Shown here piece by piece: positions 1 to 18,872 of a stretch of 18,872 bases of DNA; positions within the stretch are counted from its first letter, which is position 1, and every line of letters begins with the position of its first letter. The position numbers were made by a program, and so were the translations under genes. The stretch comes from a virus (Duplodnaviria > Heunggongvirae > Uroviricota > Caudoviricetes): IMG/VR virus record IMGVR_UViG_2663763227_000001, positions 1 to 18,872 of that record. One strand, written 5' to 3'. The notes below the pieces were generated by a model that saw only the letters and a list, made by a program, of their open reading frames with translations, did not search any database and was not told the origin of the DNA.

Positions 1-104
1 GGGTTACCCCCAAACGAATCGGAAAATCGATACTGGAAAAACTCTAACTCGGTGGCCAGTTTTTGTTGACCACTTCAGTCAGACGAAGCGCGACTGGCTC
101 TCGA

Positions 105-662
105 ATGGAAAGCGCGATGGGGAGATCGGGCTGCATGACTATCAAATCAAATACGCCAGCACACGACAAGGACTGCTGGCAAACGCCGCTTTGGCTTTTT
201 GATGCACTGGATATTGAGTTTGGATTCTGGCTGGATTCGGCAGCGAGCGACAAAAATGCTCTGTGCGCTCACTGGCTAACTGAGGACGACGACGCGCTCA
301 ATTCTGAGTGGGTAAGCCACGGTGCAATCTGGAATAACCCACCGTACAGCAATATCAGGCCGTGGGTGGAAAAAGCCGCTGAGCAGTGTATACAACAGCG
401 ACAGACGGTAGTGATGCTTGTGCCAGAGGATATGTCTGTCGGATGGTTCAGCAAGGCTCTGGAGAGTATTGACGAAGTTCGCATCATCACTGATGGACGG
501 ATTAATTTTATCGAACCATCGACAGGGCTGGAGAAGAAGGGAAACAGCAAAGGTTTCATGCTGCTGATTTGGCGACCGTTCATCAGTCCTCGACGGATGT
601 TTACTACCGTATCCAAAGCAGCATTGATGGCGATCGGGCAGGGCGTCAGGAGGGCGGCATGA
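105..662 (+). CDS. Phage-type DNA N6-adenine methyltransferase (Dam family); start ambiguous (ATG at 105, 117 or 135)
   Basis: Translation contains the N6-adenine MTase motif IV NPPY (...[11 protein letters not shown]...) and the W-x-TP-x-W-LF N-terminal signature of small phage Dam proteins. Sits in the nin region. The ORF track extends to a TTG at 63; a GGAG lies about 12 nt upstream of ATG 135. Confidence 0.8.
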
Positions 663-841: not shown

Positions 842-1017
842 TTGACCCAAATCGAAGTTACGAACAACAAAGCGTCGAGCGGGCTTTAACGTGCGCTAAC
901 TGCGGTCAGAAGCTGCATGTGCTGGAAGTTCACGTGTGTGAGCGTTGTATATATGAATGCTTAAATATGGTGGAACATAATGAGAAATATAAGCAACATA
1001 GACGAATTAAGAAATAA
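838..1017 (+). CDS. ninF: NinF-like zinc-ribbon protein, 5' portion with altered C-terminus (reading frame runs into the HNH insertion)
   Basis: GTG start at 838 overlaps the ninE stop (GTGA). Translation ...[26 protein letters not shown] carries a CxxC-x17-CxxC zinc ribbon. After codon 948 the sequence turns AT-rich and the frame continues as [22 protein letters not shown] to a stop at 1015-1017. Missed by the ORF track (59 aa). Confidence 0.5.
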
Positions 1018-1486
1018 ATTATCATATGATGATGTTTTAGGTGTACTTAGATGGAAAGTGTCTCCTTCTAATAATGTTAAGGTTGGCAGTGTTGCTGGTT
1101 ACATTAGGAGTGATGGTTATAGGATGTTAACTATCGATGGTGTAATTACTTATGCTCACCACGTTATATGGATGATAAATAATGGTGAGATTCCATTAGG
1201 GTATAAAATTGACCATATAAATGGAGTAAGGTCAGATAATAGGCTATCTAATCTTCGATTGGTTACACACCAACAGAATGCACAGAACCAAAAGAGAAAA
1301 ATAACCAATTCGTCAGGAGTGACTGGAGTATATTTCAATAAAGAGAGATGCAAGTGGATTGCGAATATATGCGTAGATGGGCGCACCAAATATCTTGGAA
1401 TATTTGCTAGCATCATTGACGCTATTGCAGAAAGGAAGAGGGCAGAAAAAGAACTGGGTTTTCATGAAAACCATGGCAGACCATAA
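980..1486 (+). CDS. HNH homing endonuclease (HNH_3 catalytic motif plus C-terminal AP2-like DNA-binding domain)
   Basis: Catalytic motif IDHINGVRSDNRLSNLRLVTHQQN; C-terminal SGVTGVYFNKERCKWIANICVDGRTKYLGIF resembles an AP2 domain. The gene is markedly AT-rich against about 50% GC flanks and lies inside the ninF reading frame. Confidence 0.85.
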   Translation: MRNISNIDELRNKLSYDDVLGVLRWKVSPSNNVKVGSVAGYIRSDGYRMLTIDGVITYAHHVIWMINNGEIPLGYKIDHINGVRSDNRLSNLRLVTHQQNAQNQKRKITNSSGVTGVYFNKERCKWIANICVDGRTKYLGIFASIIDAIAERKRAEKELGFHENHGRP

Positions 1487-3744: not shown

Positions 3745-4059
3745 CCAGAAAAACATGACCTGTTAGCCGCCATTCTCGCGGCAAAGGAACAAGGCATCGG
3801 GGCAATCCTTGCGTTTGCAATGGCGTACCTTCGCGGCAGATATAATGGCGGTGCGTTTACAAAAACAGTAATCGACGCAACGATGTGCGCCATTATCGCC
3901 TGGTTCATTCGTGACCTTCTCGACTTCGCCGGACTAAGTAGCAATCTCGCTTATATAACGAGCGTGTTTATCGGCTACATCGGTACTGACTCGATTGGTT
4001 CGCTTATCAAACGCTTCGCTGCTAAAAAATCCGGAGTAGAAGATGGTGGAAATCAATAA
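3736..4059 (+). CDS. S: Holin S (lambda class I holin; S107 from ATG 3736, S105 from ATG 3742)
   Basis: 107-aa translation [45 protein letters not shown]... is nearly identical to lambda S as remembered. Confidence 0.95.
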
Positions 4060-4519
4060 TCAACGTAAGGCGTTCCTCGATATGCTGGCGTGGTCAGAGG
4101 GAACAGATAACGGACGACAGAAAACCAGAAATCACGGTTATGACGTCATTGTTGGCGGAGAGCTATTCACTGATTACTCCGATCACCCTCGCAAACTTGT
4201 CACGCTAAACCCCAAACTCAAATCAACAGCAGCCGGACGTTACCAGCTTCTTTCCCGTTGGTGGGATGCTTACCGTAAGCAGCTTGGCCTGAAAGACTTC
4301 TCTCCCAAAAGCCAGGACGCTGTTGCGCTGCAGCAGATTAAGGAGCGTGGCGCTTTACCGATGATTGATCGCGGTGATATTCGTCAGGCAATCGACCGTT
4401 GCAGCAATATCTGGGCTTCACTGCCGGGTGCTGGTTATGGTCAGTTCGAGCATAAGGCTGACAGCCTGATTGCAAAATTCAAAGAAGCTGGCGGAACGGT
4501 CAGAGAGATTGAGGTATGA
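4043..4519 (+). CDS. R: Endolysin R (lambda-type lytic transglycosylase)
   Basis: 158 aa; [51 protein letters not shown]... is nearly identical to lambda R. Start overlaps the end of S. Confidence 0.95.
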
Positions 4520-11068: not shown

Positions 11069-12328
11069 ATGTCTAACCAGTTAACCAAAGACCTCGAAAT
11101 CCTCTTTGAGAGCGTCATTGATAGTTTTGAGGCGTCCAATGTCGTTTCCCGCGAGTGCAGCAAGTTCCGACCGGGCGACATTGAAATGCAGCGCGCTGGC
11201 GACGTTGTTTATCGCCCTCAGGGCTACCACCTGAAAACCGTGAGCGGACTTGATCTGACTTCGGCCACTGCAAACTCACTCGTTCAGCGTCAGGTGCCTG
11301 CTCGCTTCCGCGAGCCAGAGAACGTCATCTACGAACTGGACGCAAAAGAAATGCGCGATCCGTGGCACAAAGAGCAGGCTGGCAAGGCGGCGGGTCGCCA
11401 GTTGGCGGCGTGGGTTGATAACATGATCGTCGATGAGGTGGTCGCTCGCTCCACCAACGTGGTCACCATTAAATCGGCGTCCACCGGTAGCACTCTCGGC
11501 GAAGAACTCTGGAACGCATCGGCTGACGTTGATGCAATGATGCTGTCCATTGGTGTGCCTCAGGGTGGTCAGCGCAAGGCGTTCTACAACCCGTTCAACT
11601 ACAAAGACCTGGCTAAGGAGCTTGGCTCTCGCGCATATGCGGTCGGTGCAACTCTGACAGCCTATGAGAAAGCTCAGATTCCACCTGTGGCATCCTTCGA
11701 CAGTTTCCGCGTTGATTATGCTGGCGCAATGAAGGCTGGTTCAGCTACCGCTGTAACTCTCGGCGGCGCAGTAAAACACAAAGTTACCGCGATGGATTCC
11801 AACGGCGCGCCTACCGATAACCGCCAGGGTGACATCACCGTATCCACTGCTGACGTACTGGCTGTCGGCGATGCATTCACTATCGCAGGCGTTAACAGTG
11901 TCCACATGATCAAGAAGGTGGATACAGGTAAGCCGCAGGTATTCCGCGTCCTGGCAGTAAATGGCACTACCGTTACCATCAGCCCGAAAATTCTGCCACC
12001 AGACAACGCGGATAAGGCGTCTATTCCTTACCAGAACGTTACCGCCAATCCGGTGGAAAACGCGGCGATCACCATCCTCAACAAGAAGGCTGCGGCTTCC
12101 AACATCTTCTTCGCTGAGGGTTCTGTTGAGCTGATGTATGGCAAGTTGGCATTCCCTACCGGCCAGGGTCCGCAGGTTATGACCGCAAGGACCGAGCAGG
12201 GTGCGACCATCATCATGGCTTACCAGTTCGACGCTAAATCTGGCAAAACGTGGACTCGCTTCACCACGCTGGCTGGCGCAAGCGTACTGGTCCCGGAATT
12301 CACCGGCCTGGTACTGGCTAACCAGTAA
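11069..12328 (+). CDS. Major capsid (coat) protein (P22 gp5 / Sf6 gp5-like)
   Basis: 419 aa in the expected position after the scaffold gene and followed by a strong intrinsic terminator; size matches P22-type coat proteins. Sequence similarity to P22 gp5 itself is not obvious by eye. Confidence 0.85.
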   Translation: MSNQLTKDLEILFESVIDSFEASNVVSRECSKFRPGDIEMQRAGDVVYRPQGYHLKTVSGLDLTSATANSLVQRQVPARFREPENVIYELDAKEMRDPWHKEQAGKAAGRQLAAWVDNMIVDEVVARSTNVVTIKSASTGSTLGEELWNASADVDAMMLSIGVPQGGQRKAFYNPFNYKDLAKELGSRAYAVGATLTAYEKAQIPPVASFDSFRVDYAGAMKAGSATAVTLGGAVKHKVTAMDSNGAPTDNRQGDITVSTADVLAVGDAFTIAGVNSVHMIKKVDTGKPQVFRVLAVNGTTVTISPKILPPDNADKASIPYQNVTANPVENAAITILNKKAAASNIFFAEGSVELMYGKLAFPTGQGPQVMTARTEQGATIIMAYQFDAKSGKTWTRFTTLAGASVLVPEFTGLVLANQ

Positions 12329-12333
12329 TCCAA

Positions 12334-12358
12334 GGGGCTTCGGCCCCTCTTTTTTTTT
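12334..12358 (+). terminator. Intrinsic terminator downstream of the coat gene
   Basis: GGGGC-TTCG-GCCCC hairpin (GC-rich 5-bp stem with a TTCG tetraloop) followed by TCTTTTTTTTT, 6 nt after the coat stop. Confidence 0.8.
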
Positions 12359-12368
12359 GGAGATCGAA

Positions 12369-12557
12369 ATGTCTCAAATCATGCTTTATAAGCCGGGATC
12401 GATGATCACCTGCGGCCCCCACTCGCTGGATTACATCATCGTTGATGACGAAGAAGTTAAATCTCACCTGAAAAAAGGCTGGGTAAAAACTCCTGAAGAA
12501 ACCGCAACGAAGCAAAAAGTGGCTAAGGCGGAAGAAGATGGCGAAAATGAAGGGTGA
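12369..12557 (+). CDS. Hypothetical small protein (62 aa) between coat and gp4-like genes
   Basis: ATG 12369 with GGAG about 7 nt upstream; C-terminal acidic tail; 3' end overlaps the next gene. The ORF track shows an upstream extension from 12201 that overlaps the coat gene and is unlikely. Confidence 0.45.
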   Translation: MSQIMLYKPGSMITCGPHSLDYIIVDDEEVKSHLKKGWVKTPEETATKQKVAKAEEDGENEG

Positions 12558-12999
12558 TCTCGTTCTAAAGGCTTTACGAAAAGCCGGGCTGTATTCCAAT
12601 GCCACGTTGACAGATGCTGACCCTCAGGCAATTGAAGATGCCATTAATGACCTCGAAGACATGATGGCAGCATGGCAGGCTAAAGGTATCGAGCTTGGAT
12701 ATCAGTTTGCTGATACAGAAAACGGCATCATGCCGTTACCTGACGATGATTCAGGTATCCCTGCATGGGCAAATGATGGCGTCGCTTTGAAACTCGCTGT
12801 GCAAGTGTGCATGGATAACGTCATTCAGCCGTCAGACGCTCTCCTTACCGCTGCTGACAGTGCATATCAGACAATCTGCATCGCTTTAACCAAAATACCA
12901 CCACTTGAGCGGCGAAATGACATGCCTCGCGGTAGTGGTAACAAAAGCGCGTTTACGTGGAATCGGTTTTACATCGAGAAAGATGATCCGAGTACGTGA
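12538..12999 (+). CDS. Head completion / tail accessory protein (P22 gp4-like)
   Basis: 153 aa; KGDLVLKALRKAG...TLTDADPQAIEDAINDLEDMMAAWQ...MPRGSGN parallels P22 gp4 (KGDLV, TLTD, DDLE-MMA-W, GSGN). Correct synteny. Confidence 0.85.
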   Translation: MAKMKGDLVLKALRKAGLYSNATLTDADPQAIEDAINDLEDMMAAWQAKGIELGYQFADTENGIMPLPDDDSGIPAWANDGVALKLAVQVCMDNVIQPSDALLTAADSAYQTICIALTKIPPLERRNDMPRGSGNKSAFTWNRFYIEKDDPST

Positions 13000-13008
13000 G
13001 GTGAATAA

Positions 13009-14427
13009 ATGCCGATTCAGCAACTTCCGCTTATGAAAGGTGTCGGCAAAGACTTTCGAAACGCCGACTATATCGACTATCTGCCAGTGAATATGCTGGC
13101 TACGCCCAAAGAAATACTCAACAGCAGCGGATATCTTCGCTCATTCCCGGGCATTGCCAAACGTTCTGATGTGAACGGCGTATCGCGGGGCGTCGAGTAC
13201 AACATGGCGCAGAATGCTGTTTATCGCGTGTGTGGTGGCAAGCTCTACAAAGGCGAAAGCGAAGTAGGTGACGTCGCCGGAAGTGGTCGCGTATCAATGG
13301 CGCATGGTCGAACATCTCAGGCTGTAGGAGTTAATGGTCAACTGGTCGAGTATCGCTATGATGGCACGGTTAAAACCGTCTCAAACTGGCCTACAGATCG
13401 CGGATTCACGCAGTATGAGTTAGGTTCGGTTCGCGACATTACACGCTTACGTGGCCGTTATGCGTGGTCAAAAGACGGAACTGATTCATGGTTCATCACT
13501 GACCTTGAAGACGAATCGCATCCTGACCGTTACAGCGCACAATATCGCGCAGAATCGCAGCCGGACGGCATCATCGGCATCGGAACATGGCGAGACTTCA
13601 TCGTCTGCTTTGGTTCATCGACGATTGAATATTTTTCCCTGACTGGGGCAACCACCGTTGGTGCCGCTTTGTATGTCGCACAGCCATCACTGATGGTGCA
13701 GAAAGGCATTGCCGGAACTTACTGCAAAACGCCGTTTGCTGATTCCTATGCTTTCATCAGCAATCCGGCAACAGGTGCGCCGTCTGTATACATCATCGGA
13801 TCCGGTCAGGTGTCACCAATCGCCAGCGCGAGCATTGAGAAAATCCTCCGCTCCTACACTGCTGATGAACTGGCTGATGGCGTGATGGAATCGTTGCGCT
13901 TTGATGCTCATGAGTTGCTGATTATCCACCTTCCGCGCCACGTCCTAGTATATGACGCATCTTCAAGCGCCAATGGTCCGCAATGGTGTGTGTTGAAAAC
14001 TGGCTTGTATGACGATGTGTACCGCGCTATCGACTTCATTTACGAAGGCAATCAGATAACGTGCGGCGATAAGCTGGAATCCGTGACCGGGAAATTGCAG
14101 TTCGACATCAGCAGCCAGTATGGGCTGCAGCAAGAACATATTTTATTTTCACCATTAATAAAGGCAGATAATGTCATTATTAATGACCTTGAATTAGAAA
14201 CATCAGGCGGCGTGTGTGATAGAATAGATAAAATATTTATATCAGCAACAACAGATGGAATAAATTACGGCAGGGAACAAATGGTCGTATTGCAATCTCC
14301 ATTTGTATATGACAATCGAGTCTTATGGCGCAGGATTGGAAGAGTTAGACGTCTCATCGGTTTTAAATTCAGAGTTATTGCAAAAGGCCCGGTTACATTA
14401 TCCGGACTGTCTATTCGTACAACATAA
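13009..14427 (+). CDS. Tail accessory / hub protein (P22 gp10-like); 3' ~300 nt compositionally AT-rich
   Basis: 472 aa, the same length as P22 gp10, in the correct position after the gp4-like gene. GC content drops sharply from about 14130 to the stop, continuous with the AT-rich HNH gene downstream. Confidence 0.9.
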   Translation: MPIQQLPLMKGVGKDFRNADYIDYLPVNMLATPKEILNSSGYLRSFPGIAKRSDVNGVSRGVEYNMAQNAVYRVCGGKLYKGESEVGDVAGSGRVSMAHGRTSQAVGVNGQLVEYRYDGTVKTVSNWPTDRGFTQYELGSVRDITRLRGRYAWSKDGTDSWFITDLEDESHPDRYSAQYRAESQPDGIIGIGTWRDFIVCFGSSTIEYFSLTGATTVGAALYVAQPSLMVQKGIAGTYCKTPFADSYAFISNPATGAPSVYIIGSGQVSPIASASIEKILRSYTADELADGVMESLRFDAHELLIIHLPRHVLVYDASSSANGPQWCVLKTGLYDDVYRAIDFIYEGNQITCGDKLESVTGKLQFDISSQYGLQQEHILFSPLIKADNVIINDLELETSGGVCDRIDKIFISATTDGINYGREQMVVLQSPFVYDNRVLWRRIGRVRRLIGFKFRVIAKGPVTLSGLSIRTT

Positions 14428-14448
14428 ATCGAAACTTAAGGAGTAGAT

Positions 14449-14994
14449 ATGTTAAGTGAAGATATTAGAGATGTAGTTGGTTATGAGGGGCTTTATGCGG
14501 TAACTCGTGATGGTAGAGTTTACTCTCACTCAAGGATAATAAATACATGCCATGGGGCTACTCGATTAATGAAGGGTAGATGGCTGAAGCCAGCAAAGGA
14601 TGGGGGCGGATATCTATTTGTTGGTCTCTGTAAGGATGGAGAGGTTAAACCAAAAAAAATACATCGAATTGTTGCTGAGGCATTTATTGAAAACAAAGAA
14701 TCTAAACCATTCATCAACCATATAGATAATAATAATCAAAATAATAATGTAGAAAATCTTGAATGGTGTACGCAACATGAAAACATGCAGCATTGCTCTA
14801 GAAGCGGTAGGGTGAAAATACCTCATTATGTGGGTTCTGAACATCCATCGTCCAAATTAAATGAAGATATAGTTCTGGTCATAAAAAATGATTTGATTAC
14901 GCCAATTAGCGAGTTAGCTGCAAGATATAATGTGACTGTTCAGGCCATACACGCCATTAAAAAAGGGAAGACATGGAGGCATGTGAATGGCTGA
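14449..14994 (+). CDS. HNH homing endonuclease (NUMOD4 N-terminal domain, HNH motif, C-terminal HTH)
   Basis: N-terminus [21 protein letters not shown]...GGYLFVGL (NUMOD4-like); [41 protein letters not shown] (HNH); C-terminal HTH-like segment. AT-rich. Excellent SD AAGGAG. Inserted between the gp10-like and gp26-like genes; its stop overlaps the gp26 start. Confidence 0.85.
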
Positions 14995-15688
14995 TCCCAA
15001 TCTCAACGTGCCAGTAACTATCCAGGCCACCCGGCTAGACACATCAATCCTGCCGCGAAATATCTTCTCGCAGTCGTACCTGCTGTACGTTATCGCTCAG
15101 GGTACCGATGCCAGTAACGTGGCTAACAAGGCAAATCAGGCTGGTCAGGGCGCTTACGATGCTCAGGTGAAAAACGATGAACAGGACGTCGAACTGGCAG
15201 ATCACGATTCAAGAATCACCGCAAACACAAAAGCGATAAATCTCCTTGAGGTCAGGTTAACAACCGCCGAAGGGAAGATAGTCGTACTGCGTAGCGATGT
15301 TGATTACTTGCTGGATGAGGTTATCGATATTCAGGCGCATCTGGTCACTGTTGACAAAAGACTGGATGGCGTAGAAAGCGATGTATCTGACATTAAGAGT
15401 GATTACGTATCGAAAACCGTAACAGAATCGCAGTCTCTTGCGTCACCGCTGGATGTAAAAACATCATATTCAGTTGATGGAATTCAGGTTGTTGGAGCAA
15501 GAAATACCGGATGGACTGCAGCCACAGGTACGCCACTTCTTGGCTCATTCAACGCTAACCAGTCATACACTGTCGGCACTACGTACACACAATCCGAAGT
15601 CGCAGCTCTCGCTACAGGTTTGCAGCAGGCGCGGCAGCGTATTCTGGCGCTTGAAACAGCACTTAGATTACATGGGCTGATTGACTGA
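14987..15688 (+). CDS. Tail needle / plug protein (P22 gp26-like)
   Basis: 233 aa, the same length as P22 gp26; [41 protein letters not shown]...[18 protein letters not shown]... matches P22 gp26 closely from memory, with coiled-coil heptads. Confidence 0.9.
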
Positions 15689-16143
15689 TGATTACATTCA
15701 AACCAACGCGAAACATCGACCTGATAGAAGCCGTGGGAAATCACCCCGACATTATCGCTGGTAGCAACAACGGTGATGGATACGACTACAAGCCTGAATG
15801 CCGTTACTTTGAGGTTAACGTGCACGGTCAGTTTGGCGGCATTGTTTACTATCAGGAGATTCAGCCGCTTACATTCGATTGCCACGCCATGTACCTGCCA
15901 GAGGTTCGCGGATTCAGCAAGGAAATCGGGCTGGCGTTCTGGCGATACATTCTGACTAACACCACCGTTCAGTGCGTCACATCGTTCGCTGCACGCAAAT
16001 TCCGCCACGGGCAGATGTACTGCGCAATGATTGGCCTTAAGCGTGTAGGAACCATCAAGAAATACTTCAAAGGCGTGGATGACGTGACGTTTTACAGCGC
16101 CACACGTGAAGAACTAATCGACTTCCTGAATCACGGGAGATAG
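15688..16143 (+). CDS. Virion protein in the P22 gene 14 position (gp14-like)
   Basis: 151-aa ORF whose start overlaps the gp26 stop (TGATG). Synteny with P22 (26-14-7-20-16); function assigned by position only. Confidence 0.7.
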   Translation: MITFKPTRNIDLIEAVGNHPDIIAGSNNGDGYDYKPECRYFEVNVHGQFGGIVYYQEIQPLTFDCHAMYLPEVRGFSKEIGLAFWRYILTNTTVQCVTSFAARKFRHGQMYCAMIGLKRVGTIKKYFKGVDDVTFYSATREELIDFLNHGR

Positions 16144-16145
16144 CC

Positions 16146-16838
16146 ATGTTATATGCATTTAAGCTGGGCAGAAAACTGCGCGGCGAGGAACCGTATTGCC
16201 CTGAAAAAGGCGGGAAAGGTGGCAGTTCTGATAAAAGTGCAAAGTATGCCGCAGAAGCTCAGAAGTATGCCGCAGACCTGCAAAATCAGCAGTTCAACAC
16301 CATCATGAACAACCTGAAGCCGTTTACTCCTCTGGCTGGGAAGTATGTCGGCAGCCTTGAGAACTTATCGTCTCTGGAAGGGCAAGGTCAGGCACTTAAC
16401 CAGTATTACAACTCTCAGCAGTATAAAGACCTTGCTGGTCAGGCTCGCTATCAGAGTCTGGCGGCAGCGGAAGCAACAGGTGGATTGGGTTCCACCGCAA
16501 CCAGTAATCAGTTAGCAACAATCGCACCAACGCTTGGTCAGCAATGGCTGTCTGGACAAATGAACAATTACAACAACCTGGCAAATATCGGTCTTGGCGC
16601 TCTTCAGGGACAGGCAAACGCCGGGCAAACATATGCCAACAACATGAGTCAGATTTCACAGCAAAGCGCGGCGCTGGCGGCGGCAAACGCCAACCGACCG
16701 TCAGCATTGCGGCAGGGTGTTAGTGGTGCTGCATCCGGTGCGCTTTTGGGTGGTGGTATAGCCAGTGCTCTCGAGCTATCAACTCCGTGGGGTGCTGGTA
16801 TCGGTGCTGGTCTTGGTCTGCTTGGTTCGCTGTTTTAA
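16146..16838 (+). CDS. Ejection (E) protein, P22 gp7-like
   Basis: 230 aa (P22 gp7 about 229 aa); N-terminus MLYAFKLGRKLRGEEPYCPEKGGKGG; Gln/Asn-rich middle and Gly/Ala-rich hydrophobic C-terminus; correct synteny. Confidence 0.85.
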   Translation: MLYAFKLGRKLRGEEPYCPEKGGKGGSSDKSAKYAAEAQKYAADLQNQQFNTIMNNLKPFTPLAGKYVGSLENLSSLEGQGQALNQYYNSQQYKDLAGQARYQSLAAAEATGGLGSTATSNQLATIAPTLGQQWLSGQMNNYNNLANIGLGALQGQANAGQTYANNMSQISQQSAALAAANANRPSALRQGVSGAASGALLGGGIASALELSTPWGAGIGAGLGLLGSLF

Positions 16839-16848
16839 GGGGTAATCA

Positions 16849-18192
16849 ATGGCTACTTGGCAACAGGGTATTAATTCTGGTGGTTTTCTGGCTGGCATCG
16901 GTACGCAAAATGAGAATGCGCCAAAGGCAAGCGACATTAACGCAACGCTTGGTCTGATTCGCGAAAACAATGAACTGGCTCGATCAGGTGCAAATAACGT
17001 TGGTCTGACCGCGTTACGTGGTCTGGCTGGAGTTGCTGATATTTATAAGCAGCAGCAACAGCAGGAACGTAAAGCGGCATTCCAGAAAGGTTATGCGGAT
17101 GCTTATGCGTCCGGCGACAGGGAGCAGATGCGTAATCTTATTACAGCATTCCCCGAAGAGTTTGAGGAAGTCCGTAAAGGCATGGGGTATGTCGATGACG
17201 CCCAGCGGAATGATTTTGGCAATCTGGCGCTCAAGGCTCAGGTAGCTTCGTCGCTTGGTCCGGGTGCATTTGGCAGGTTTATGATGGATAGCGAAAAGGA
17301 GATGCGTCGTTTAGGTATCCCTCCAGAAACTATTGCTGAAATGCAGGTTAATGACCCGCAGGGCTTCCAGCACTTTGCAGGTAATCTGGCACTATTTTCT
17401 CTCGGCCATGAGAAGTATTTCGATATCAAAGATCAAATGGAGGGGCGTCGACTTGAGCAAGGGCGATTGGATGAAAGCATCCGTCAGGCTGACATGGAGA
17501 ATGCGAGAGGATGGGCAAATATCCAGAACGCTCAACTAGACAGGGCTCAGCGGGCACAAATGCACTCAGATGAGATGGGATTGAAGCTAATGGAGCTGGG
17601 GCAAAAAGGTAAGCCGTCAGCAGACTTAATTAAGGGATTAAATTCTGACATTACCAATTTTGGCAAAAATTATAACTCTGTCAGAGCGGCGGCAAACTCT
17701 CTGCAAGCCCTTAGCAAGGTAAATACTGGCGCTGCCCAACTTGGGATTATCTTTAATTACATGAAGTCTCTCGACCCTCAGTCAGTTGTTCGCGAAGGTG
17801 AACAGGTTCAGGTCATGCGCTCTGATGGCATATGGGGGCAGATAAAAGGATATGTAGACCAGCTTAATGCAGGGAATGGCTTGTCACAGGAAGCGAGGGA
17901 TAACATTGTCAACGCAGCAAAAATTAACGCCAACGCTATGGGGCAGCAGTTTAACCAGCAGGTAGACGAATATCTGGATACGTATGGAGATACTATTCCT
18001 CAGGGGCTGAAAAAAAGTTTAGGGAGAAGGAAGGCCAAGCTATTTGACGATGTCCCAGCGCAGCCTACACCACAAGGTGGTAATGGGCAGACAAAAGCTG
18101 CGCCAAGTGGGATATCAGAAGGCGCGACGGCAACGAACCCTAAAACTGGTCAGAAACTCATTTATAGGAACGGACAATGGCAACCGATGTAG
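16849..18192 (+). CDS. Ejection (E) protein, P22 gp20-like
   Basis: 447-aa ORF in the expected position between the gp7-like and gp16-like genes; size comparable to P22 gp20. Confidence 0.8.
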   Translation: MATWQQGINSGGFLAGIGTQNENAPKASDINATLGLIRENNELARSGANNVGLTALRGLAGVADIYKQQQQQERKAAFQKGYADAYASGDREQMRNLITAFPEEFEEVRKGMGYVDDAQRNDFGNLALKAQVASSLGPGAFGRFMMDSEKEMRRLGIPPETIAEMQVNDPQGFQHFAGNLALFSLGHEKYFDIKDQMEGRRLEQGRLDESIRQADMENARGWANIQNAQLDRAQRAQMHSDEMGLKLMELGQKGKPSADLIKGLNSDITNFGKNYNSVRAAANSLQALSKVNTGAAQLGIIFNYMKSLDPQSVVREGEQVQVMRSDGIWGQIKGYVDQLNAGNGLSQEARDNIVNAAKINANAMGQQFNQQVDEYLDTYGDTIPQGLKKSLGRRKAKLFDDVPAQPTPQGGNGQTKAAPSGISEGATATNPKTGQKLIYRNGQWQPM

Positions 18193-18612
18193 GTTTACCC
18201 GAAGGCTTTGTTCTCGATAATCAGCCTGATAACTCACAGCTTCCTGATGGCTTTGTGCTTGATTCCCAACCAGAACAGCAGCAATCTCCTTTGGTTTCAC
18301 CAGAGGAAAATTCCAGACAGGAAAATGTTGTTAATAATGCTAACGGTTTCGACCGTTTTATGTATGGCGTTCTCAGTGGATTGATGGATGTTGGTAAAGG
18401 TGTTGGCCTGTTTCAGGACATGACACCAGAAGAGCAAGCCGCAATTCAGTCTCTACAGCAGAAGTTAGCGGCAAAACCATCAACCGCACAAGATGTTGGT
18501 GAGTTCGTTGGACAAGCAGCACCATTTGTTAGTGGTGGTGGGATTATTTCTCAGGTTCCGAAAGGGGCGGCAAGGCTGGCTGCCGCCGCAGGGCTTGGTG
18601 CTGGAGAAGGGG
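18177..18612 (+). pseudogene. Ejection protein gp16-like, 5' fragment only (about 145 codons) truncated by IS insertion
   Basis: ORF starts overlapping the gp20-like stop; N-terminal tandem motif LPEGFVLDNQP / LPDGFVLDSQP. Phage-like sequence ends at 18612, where the IS terminal repeat TGAACCGCCCCGG begins. The ORF-track extension to 18773 is read-through into the IS. P22 gp16 is about 600 aa. Confidence 0.8.
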
Positions 18613-18872
18613 TGAACCGCCCCGGGTTTCCTGGAGAGTGTTTTATCTGTGAACTCAGGCTGCCAGATCATCGTTTCCGATGGAAGCATAATAAGCTTTT
18701 TCTGCTTCTGCCGGAGGAGTATGGCCCAGCCTTTCCAGCAATCGTCGATTGTTATACCAGTCCACCCACGTGAGTGTGGCCAGTTCCACTTCTGCACGGT
18801 TTTTCCAGCTCTTACGGTGTATTACCTCCGCTTTGTAAAGGCCATTGATGCTCTCCGCCATCGCGTTGTCAT
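18613..18872 (-). mobile_element. IS3-family insertion sequence (IS629/IS1203-like), right end; continues beyond the window
   Basis: Terminal inverted repeat begins TGAACCGCCCCGGG at 18613. The minus strand encodes the C-terminal end of an IS3-family OrfB transposase ending at 18655. Resembles IS629-group ends as remembered. Confidence 0.85.
18655..18872 (-). CDS. IS3-family transposase OrfB, C-terminal part (partial, runs off the window edge)
   Basis: Minus-strand translation ...DNAMAESINGLYKAEVIHRKSWKNRAEVELATLTWVDWYNNRRLLERLGHTPPAEAEKAYY...-stop: DDE integrase-core C-terminus including the residues after the catalytic E. The real N-terminus lies outside the window. Confidence 0.85.
   Translation of the reverse strand, partial: DNAMAESINGLYKAEVIHRKSWKNRAEVELATLTWVDWYNNRRLLERLGHTPPAEAEKAYYASIGNDDLAA

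Follow-up and report, generated by a model that had tools for sequence, protein, structure and literature searches.

In an E. coli prophage of the P22-like (Lederbergvirus) type, the gp16-like ejection-protein gene is split by an IS629 element, and we consider it very probable that this reflects a simple, recent transposition that most likely leaves the prophage non-infectious. The window, by which we mean the whole stretch of DNA analysed here, is the complete contig LIUZ01000050.1 (18,872 bp) of the E. coli draft assembly GCA_001419865.1, and it spans the prophage's genes for lysis and virion assembly together with the nin region. The late genes run in the order Sf6-type small terminase, large terminase, portal, scaffold, coat, gp4, gp10, HNH endonuclease, gp26, gp14, gp7 and gp20, and these, like all 20-odd late genes in the window, are full length when compared with relatives. 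The nearest sequenced phages (Kapi1, CUS-3, E212 and HK620) share 94–96% identity with the window and cover 40–63% of it; no identical mosaic was found among complete E. coli genomes, a tRNA and Rfam scan of the window gave no matches, and a search for literature mentioning the accession GCA_001419865.1 found none. The right-hand end of the window carries the following features.

16146–16838, plus strand: intact gp7-like ejection protein gene (PF25688 P22_gp7, E = 4e-131, full-length match)
16849–18192, plus strand: intact gp20-like ejection protein gene (PF16928 Inj_translocase, E = 1.3e-73)
18177–18612, plus strand: 5′ fragment of the gp16-like ejection (DNA transfer) protein gene, codons 1–145 plus 1 nt (identity to intact genes)
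18177–18773, plus strand: chimeric 198-codon ORF, 145 gp16-like residues plus 53 from IS629 antisense (translation; stop at 18771–18773)
18610–18612, unstranded: left GGG copy of the 3-bp target-site duplication (junction comparison)
18613–18872, minus strand: IS629 right end (IRR side), 260 nt, up to the contig end (identity to E. coli copies)
18613–18637, unstranded: IS629 terminal inverted repeat (IRR), starting 5′-TG (23 of the first 25 nt equal the other end of the reference element, the first 14 being identical)
18655–18870, minus strand: C terminus of IS629 transposase OrfB, last 71 codons plus stop (translation identical to annotated IS629 OrfB)

A first-pass annotation, made from the letters of the window, had described a gp16-like ORF cut after about 145 codons by an IS3-family element with a terminal repeat from 18613 and a transposase C terminus on the opposite strand, and each of these points is borne out. 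Similarity of the plus-strand ORF from 18177 to its intact homologues stops at 18612, after 145 codons and 1 nt, placing the break exactly at 18612/18613. The preserved part, which shares its first 16 nt with the gp20-like gene, has the same nucleotide sequence as the opening 436 nt of the intact genes at two other loci (L002 and L003) and matches positions 1–145 of the protein family phrog_6704; intact alleles encode 704–722 aa, and the allele reconstituted below encodes 707 aa. Beyond the break the reading frame runs on into the antisense strand of the element, and the resulting 198-aa chimera is the expected truncated product of the split gene. A look-up of this chimeric ORF by sequence returned no record. 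The deposited annotation calls a single 65-aa ORF in the chimera frame (KQI87504.1), and a search across about 15 billion proteins placed this junction ORF on no other contig.

The element that begins at 18613 is IS629, of the IS3 family, lying in inverted orientation relative to the phage late operon. Its 260 nt in the window are identical at 259 positions to the 1310-bp element annotated as 'insertion sequence: IS3 family IS629' in LC567824.1 (the sole difference is at 18841), and the annotated terminus of that reference maps exactly onto 18613. The tip TGAACCGCCCCGGG occurs once in the window (18613–18626), with 0 occurrences expected from 200 shuffles. The OrfB fragment matches Pfam rve_3 (E = 1.2e-10) and rve_2 (E = 1.3e-7), and the reference proteins match rve (full OrfB, E = 4.9e-28) and HTH_Tnp_1 (OrfA, E = 6e-13). 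IS629 (isoforms IS1203 and IS3411) is known from E. coli O157:H7 and Shigella, with the same inverted-repeat tips, OrfA (HTH_Tnp_1) and OrfB (rve). Over the parts that the contigs cover, the element itself is no different from known copies, and its insertion site alone is new. The same 260 nt match 'IS3 family transposase' loci in E. coli at 100% identity (3126 records at at least 99%). This breadth bears on the suggestion, drawn from the IS type in the first pass, that the host might be Shigella or E. coli O157: E. coli is supported by the deposited record (KQI87502.1, locus tags AM261_), but the hint is a weak one and gives no particular pointer to O157 or Shigella, the IS end being present in 76% of complete E. 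coli genomes (4140 of 5426).

The window ends within IS629 because the assembly broke there, and the other half of the gene was sought by predicting which ORFs a gene caller would report on the right side of the insertion and looking these up by exact sequence. The model was a Logan contig (locus L003, run ERR1609613) that is 99.93% identical to window positions 11290–18612 and carries an intact 707-aa gene with an empty site. The 543-aa fragment modelled from this allele is NCBI entry WP_252321729.1, encoded on a single 4109-bp contig, LIUZ01000079.1, which belongs to the same assembly as the window, GCA_001419865.1. The 718-aa Ec15103 allele was also tried as a model and rejected: only a 554-aa fragment of that type exists, on the unrelated Logan contig SRR23239794, which starts with adapter and has the site intact. 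LIUZ01000079.1, reversed (locus L011), reads as follows.

L011 1–721: left part of IS629 including orfA, ending ...CCCGGGGCGGTTCA (IRL tip at 708–721)
L011 722–724: right GGG copy of the target-site duplication
L011 725–2412: remainder of the gp16-like gene, CTATTGTAGCC..., 1688 nt (stop at 2412)

The 721-nt IRL arm is identical to the annotated 1310-bp IS629 at 714 positions, and its OrfA is 108 aa long with an HTH_Tnp_1 domain; the overlap of orfA with orfB is also on this contig. The left junction reads ...GAAGGGG/TGAACC in the window and the right junction ...GGTTCA/GGG/CTATTG on the second contig (L011 722–724), whereas the empty site of L003 reads ...GAAG[GGG]CTATTG, with GGG in a single copy; insertion thus duplicated 3 bp (the annotated IS629 of LC567824.1 has AGG as its target duplication). 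When window 18177–18612 is joined to L011 725–2412, the resulting 2124 nt agree with the intact 707-aa gene of L003 at every position. This perfect reconstitution once the IS and one GGG are removed indicates simple transposition, and since neither half of the gene shows any further change, the insertion is recent. The check proposed with the first-pass annotation, extension beyond the window, therefore recovered the other IS end, the duplication and the remainder of the gene, all on LIUZ01000079.1, in place of an uninterrupted gene. The two contigs together cover 981 of the 1310 nt of IS629 (260 in the window and 721 on L011), of which 8 differ from the reference; the 329 nt in the middle lie on neither, presumably having collapsed with other IS629 copies during assembly, and we infer that a single IS of full length lies between the contigs. 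An exact search of IMG/VR for the left junction did not find it, nor is the junction present among the 5426 complete E. coli genomes; as far as databases show, the insertion is private to this assembly and strain.

Position and sequence comparison indicate that the split gene and P22 gp16 are distantly homologous and occupy the same place, in keeping with its initial description as gp16-like. It directly follows the gp7 (PF25688) and gp20 (PF16928) homologues, an order identical in P22 and Sf6. The intact protein belongs to phrog_6704, which carries no annotated function, and also matches phrog_770, the family containing P22 gp16, with E = 2e-27 (P22 gp16 itself scores E = 2e-266). An hhalign comparison of a 15-sequence profile of relatives with P22 gp16 gave a probability of 97.5% (E = 7.7e-12) across residues 40–502, and BLASTP of the intact protein against P22 gp16 gave 24% identity (E = 0.008); Sf6 gp13 is no nearer to the intact protein than P22 gp16 is. 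An identity of 24% is normal for this family, because the gp16 proteins of P22-like phages are mutually 22–26% identical, and whole E-protein sets are interchangeable between phages (PMC10461980, Casjens laboratory). Pfam has no model for the intact protein or for P22 gp16, and a PDB sequence search with the intact protein found no relative. The isolated phages S.Kent 1-2-1, E212, EC.P3 and Kapi1 retain the intact 704–722-aa form, whose core (residues ~225–705) is common to the 'DNA transfer proteins' of many phages at 25–33% identity.

What the insertion is likely to do follows from the biology of the P22 ejection proteins. These E-proteins (gp7, gp20 and gp16) are absolutely necessary for DNA delivery (PMC4992974), as the first-pass annotation stated for gp16; DNA injection requires each of the three, and in gp16 and gp20 the C-terminal regions are critical to function (PMC10461980). 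They are dispensable for assembly, and particles without gp16 package DNA and fail to deliver it (PMC4992974, PMC10461980). The role of the sets from Sf6, L, HK620 and CUS-3 is known from hybrid phages (PMC4992974, PMC10461980), and we carry essentiality over to the phrog_6704 type from P22 and from these hybrids. The pairing of gp16 with gp20 is obligatory and must be matched, Sf6 gp16 alone failing in P22 (PMC10461980).

In the mechanism we favour, IS629 (1310 bp) would have transposed into the gp16-type gene of an E. coli strain's P22-like (Lederbergvirus) prophage, inserting after codon 145 of 707, oriented against the late operon and duplicating GGG. IS3-family elements move by copy-out-paste-in, in which replicative excision to a circle is followed by conservative integration with a 3–4-bp duplication (PMC2909936). 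In O157 genomes, IS629 duplications are likewise 3–4 bp long and 62% of copies lie inside prophages, as does the copy described here (PMC3271280). The cut removes residues 146–707, which is 80% of the protein and includes the entire conserved core (~225–705), so that the split gene would yield a product of only 198 aa with the whole core gone. Induction would at best give DNA-filled, normal-looking particles unable to deliver their genome, unless a gp16-type protein were supplied in trans, and we think it likely that a prophage of this kind would make no infectious particles without a matching protein. P22 packages its DNA by the headful, and a genome lengthened by more than about 2 kb over wild type loses its terminal redundancy; should the IS load add that much here, it would be a second, independent defect. 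The suggestion in the first pass that the prophage is probably defective is thus a sound one, in view of the residues that the cut removes. The closest parallel is the P22 16- mutants (amber or deletion), which likewise lack the third ejection protein, the product of the gene directly behind 7 and 20, and their classical phenotype is the one to be expected; here the protein is of the phrog_6704 type (707 aa, 24% identity) and the lesion is an IS rather than a point mutation.

The outer ends of the two contigs carry a second IS3-family element, IS911.

1–77, plus strand: last 77 nt of IS911 (IRR end), with the OrfB stop at 67–69 (100% identical to annotated IS911 of phage Sf6)
78–138, plus strand: 3′ remnant of ninB, last 19 codons plus stop (alignment to intact ninB of E. 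coli MS 21-1)

The first of these ends cuts ninB after about codon 127 of 146. The IRL end (77 nt, L011 4033–4109), also 100% identical to Sf6 IS911, cuts an ant-like gene for an antirepressor-like protein (Bro-N/P22_AR_C) after codon 38. Both ends share one orientation, and two separate IS911 insertions in direct orientation are the simple reading; stubs of 77 nt would fit a de Bruijn assembly with k = 77. It is very unlikely that a single IS911 joins ant′ to ′ninB and holds the late-gene block of ~23 kb as a closed circle or tandem amplification. If that were true, the IS911-closed block would be an IS-mobilised cassette of phage structural genes, unlike a prophage with two IS911 insertions. 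Contigs with the other sides of both IS911 junctions, sought through modelled ORFs, were absent or came from other samples. Matches to a 128-aa 'partial NinB' were considered as a shared insertion and set aside: they are contigs of other assemblies that end near this point, a selection effect of the exact-length query. In lambda, ninB is non-essential. Phage Sf6 carries IS911 within its ninG-like gene 54, a non-essential nin gene, and is viable. Because of this dispensability of ninB and the viability of Sf6 with an IS911 in its nin region, it is the IS629 in the gp16-like gene that is the clearly inactivating lesion. The present prophage resembles Sf6 in having an IS3-family element inside a P22-like phage gene, although here IS629 sits in the gene for a virion protein that is probably needed for infection.

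Seen from the window alone, which stops inside IS629, the junction would also be compatible with the breakpoint of an IS629-mediated deletion or rearrangement, which would have removed or displaced the gene's 3′ portion and the prophage DNA beyond it; such deletions by IS629 are documented in O157 genomes (PMC3271280). The remainder of the gene is nevertheless in the same assembly, adjoining the other IS629 end, with a 3-bp duplication and perfect reconstitution, which makes a breakpoint extremely unlikely. An assembly artefact, in which a chimeric contig end at a repeat mimics a phage/IS junction, draws some plausibility from the IS sequence at both contig ends and from the tendency of draft assemblies to break at repeats. 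Yet the join falls precisely at the IS629 terminal nucleotide, the reciprocal junction falls at the other terminal nucleotide on an independent contig, and a 3-bp direct target repeat is not something that misassembly yields, so that an artefact is barely conceivable. With the reciprocal junction and the target duplication in hand, we regard both the breakpoint and the chimera as excluded.

The insertion could also be real and the prophage still productive, either because the phage does without this protein or its fragment still functions, because a helper P22-like prophage supplies it, or because cells with an empty site persist in the culture. The high divergence of gp16 types (22–26% identity; PMC10461980) and the frequency of several lambdoid prophages per E. 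coli genome (a median of 3 matching places per genome) speak for a productive prophage. Against productivity stand the loss of 80% of the protein and with it every conserved column past residue 145, and the failure of P22 particles without gp16 to inject DNA (PMC10461980, PMC4992974). A helper in particular is unlikely, because gp16 and gp20 have to match each other (PMC10461980) and this prophage has an almost unique gp20 allele, its exact protein sequence occurring on only 2 contigs in the collection searched. Overall we judge a productive prophage to be quite unlikely. Somewhat more room exists for IS629 being one of several lesions in a remnant that was already dead, in which the ninB′–ant′ block may be without early region, integrase and tailspike: the IS911 ends truncate ninB (window 1–77) and the ant-like gene (L011 4033–4109), and the missing sides of both IS911 junctions did not come to light. 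This too appears rather unlikely, in that the 20-odd late genes of the window are all full length against relatives, a gene split without other mutation indicates recent events rather than long decay, and Sf6 is viable despite IS911 in its nin region. An earlier death of the prophage is compatible with the main explanation and changes only the order of the lesions.

The simple transposition of IS629 into the gp16-type gene is an ordinary event: a known element at a new insertion site, with a predictable effect. It raises no new biological question, and its value lies mainly in annotation. The insertion explains the fragmented gene calls in this draft genome and links two of its contigs, LIUZ01000050.1 and LIUZ01000079.1. 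It adds one more documented case of IS629 in a prophage, with both junctions, the target duplication and an empty-site reference. The prophage can be flagged as probably non-infectious, which is relevant to any use of the strain in induction, host-range or prophage-census work.

Both borders of the contig are insertion sequence: in addition to the IS629 end, an IS911 end occupies positions 1-77. IS911 recurs at the end of L011, the companion contig LIUZ01000079.1 of the same assembly, which is shown reversed and bears the other half of the IS629-split gp16-like gene.

Window 1-77: terminal 77 nt of IS911, matching the phage Sf6 copy at 100% identity.
L011, within 3919-4109: first 77 nt of IS911 (IRL end), in the same orientation as the copy at window 1-77.

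Across window 1-138 the IS911 end adjoins the last 19 codons of ninB, the gene being broken after about codon 127 of 146. On L011 the broken gene is antirepressor-like (Bro-N/P22_AR_C), with the cut after codon 38; its product in L003, a near-identical prophage locus, is 236 aa long. These two ends may belong either to two copies of IS911 or to a single one. Comparing window 54-90 with positions 1990-2010 of L007, a locus with uninterrupted ninB, gives the native target as GTTAAGTGGTCAGACG. Within it lies AAGTGGTCA, which recurs exactly at positions 3-11 of the IS911 terminus (TGAAGTGGTCAAC...); the insertion point falls inside this motif. Because the target thus matches the IS911 end, and an IR-targeted mode of insertion is described for this element in a passage of PMC9333248 citing Loot et al. 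2002, the choice of site in ninB may have been non-random.

The IS629 end at the opposite border has given rise to a deposited protein, which is a junction artefact.

Window 18576-18773, + strand: KQI87504.1, 65-aa 'hypothetical protein', an ORF read from the IS629 end.

Its 90% cluster consists of similar chimeric ORFs from other E. coli strains, in which the same IS629 end neighbours fimD, shufflon, integrase and phage tail genes.

The phage segment itself carries two HNH genes.

Window 980-1486, + strand: HNH_3 endonuclease ORF, 168 aa, nin region (E 1e-19).
Window 14449-14994, + strand: HNH_3/NUMOD4 homing-endonuclease-like ORF, 181 aa, between the gp10-like and gp26-like genes.

Nothing lies at the latter position in P22, in Sf6 or in the E. 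coli MS 21-1 prophage, which is similar in other respects; the identical 181-aa protein is present on 497 contigs.

P0020, a 589-aa E. coli protein found on 13 contigs, joins DnaB helicase domains to a part that matches 43% of the gp16-like protein at 93% identity, and is probably a fusion out of a rearranged prophage elsewhere. At the amino terminus of the gp16-like protein itself, residues 7-32 (window 18195-18272) hold a tandem motif, LPEGFVLDNQP ... LPDGFVLDSQP, and residues 1-34 share 83% identity with the start of a Salmonella phage SEN22 protein named 'DNA transfer protein'. Since the two proteins are otherwise unrelated, their alignment suggests a mosaic joint directly behind a conserved N-terminal tag.
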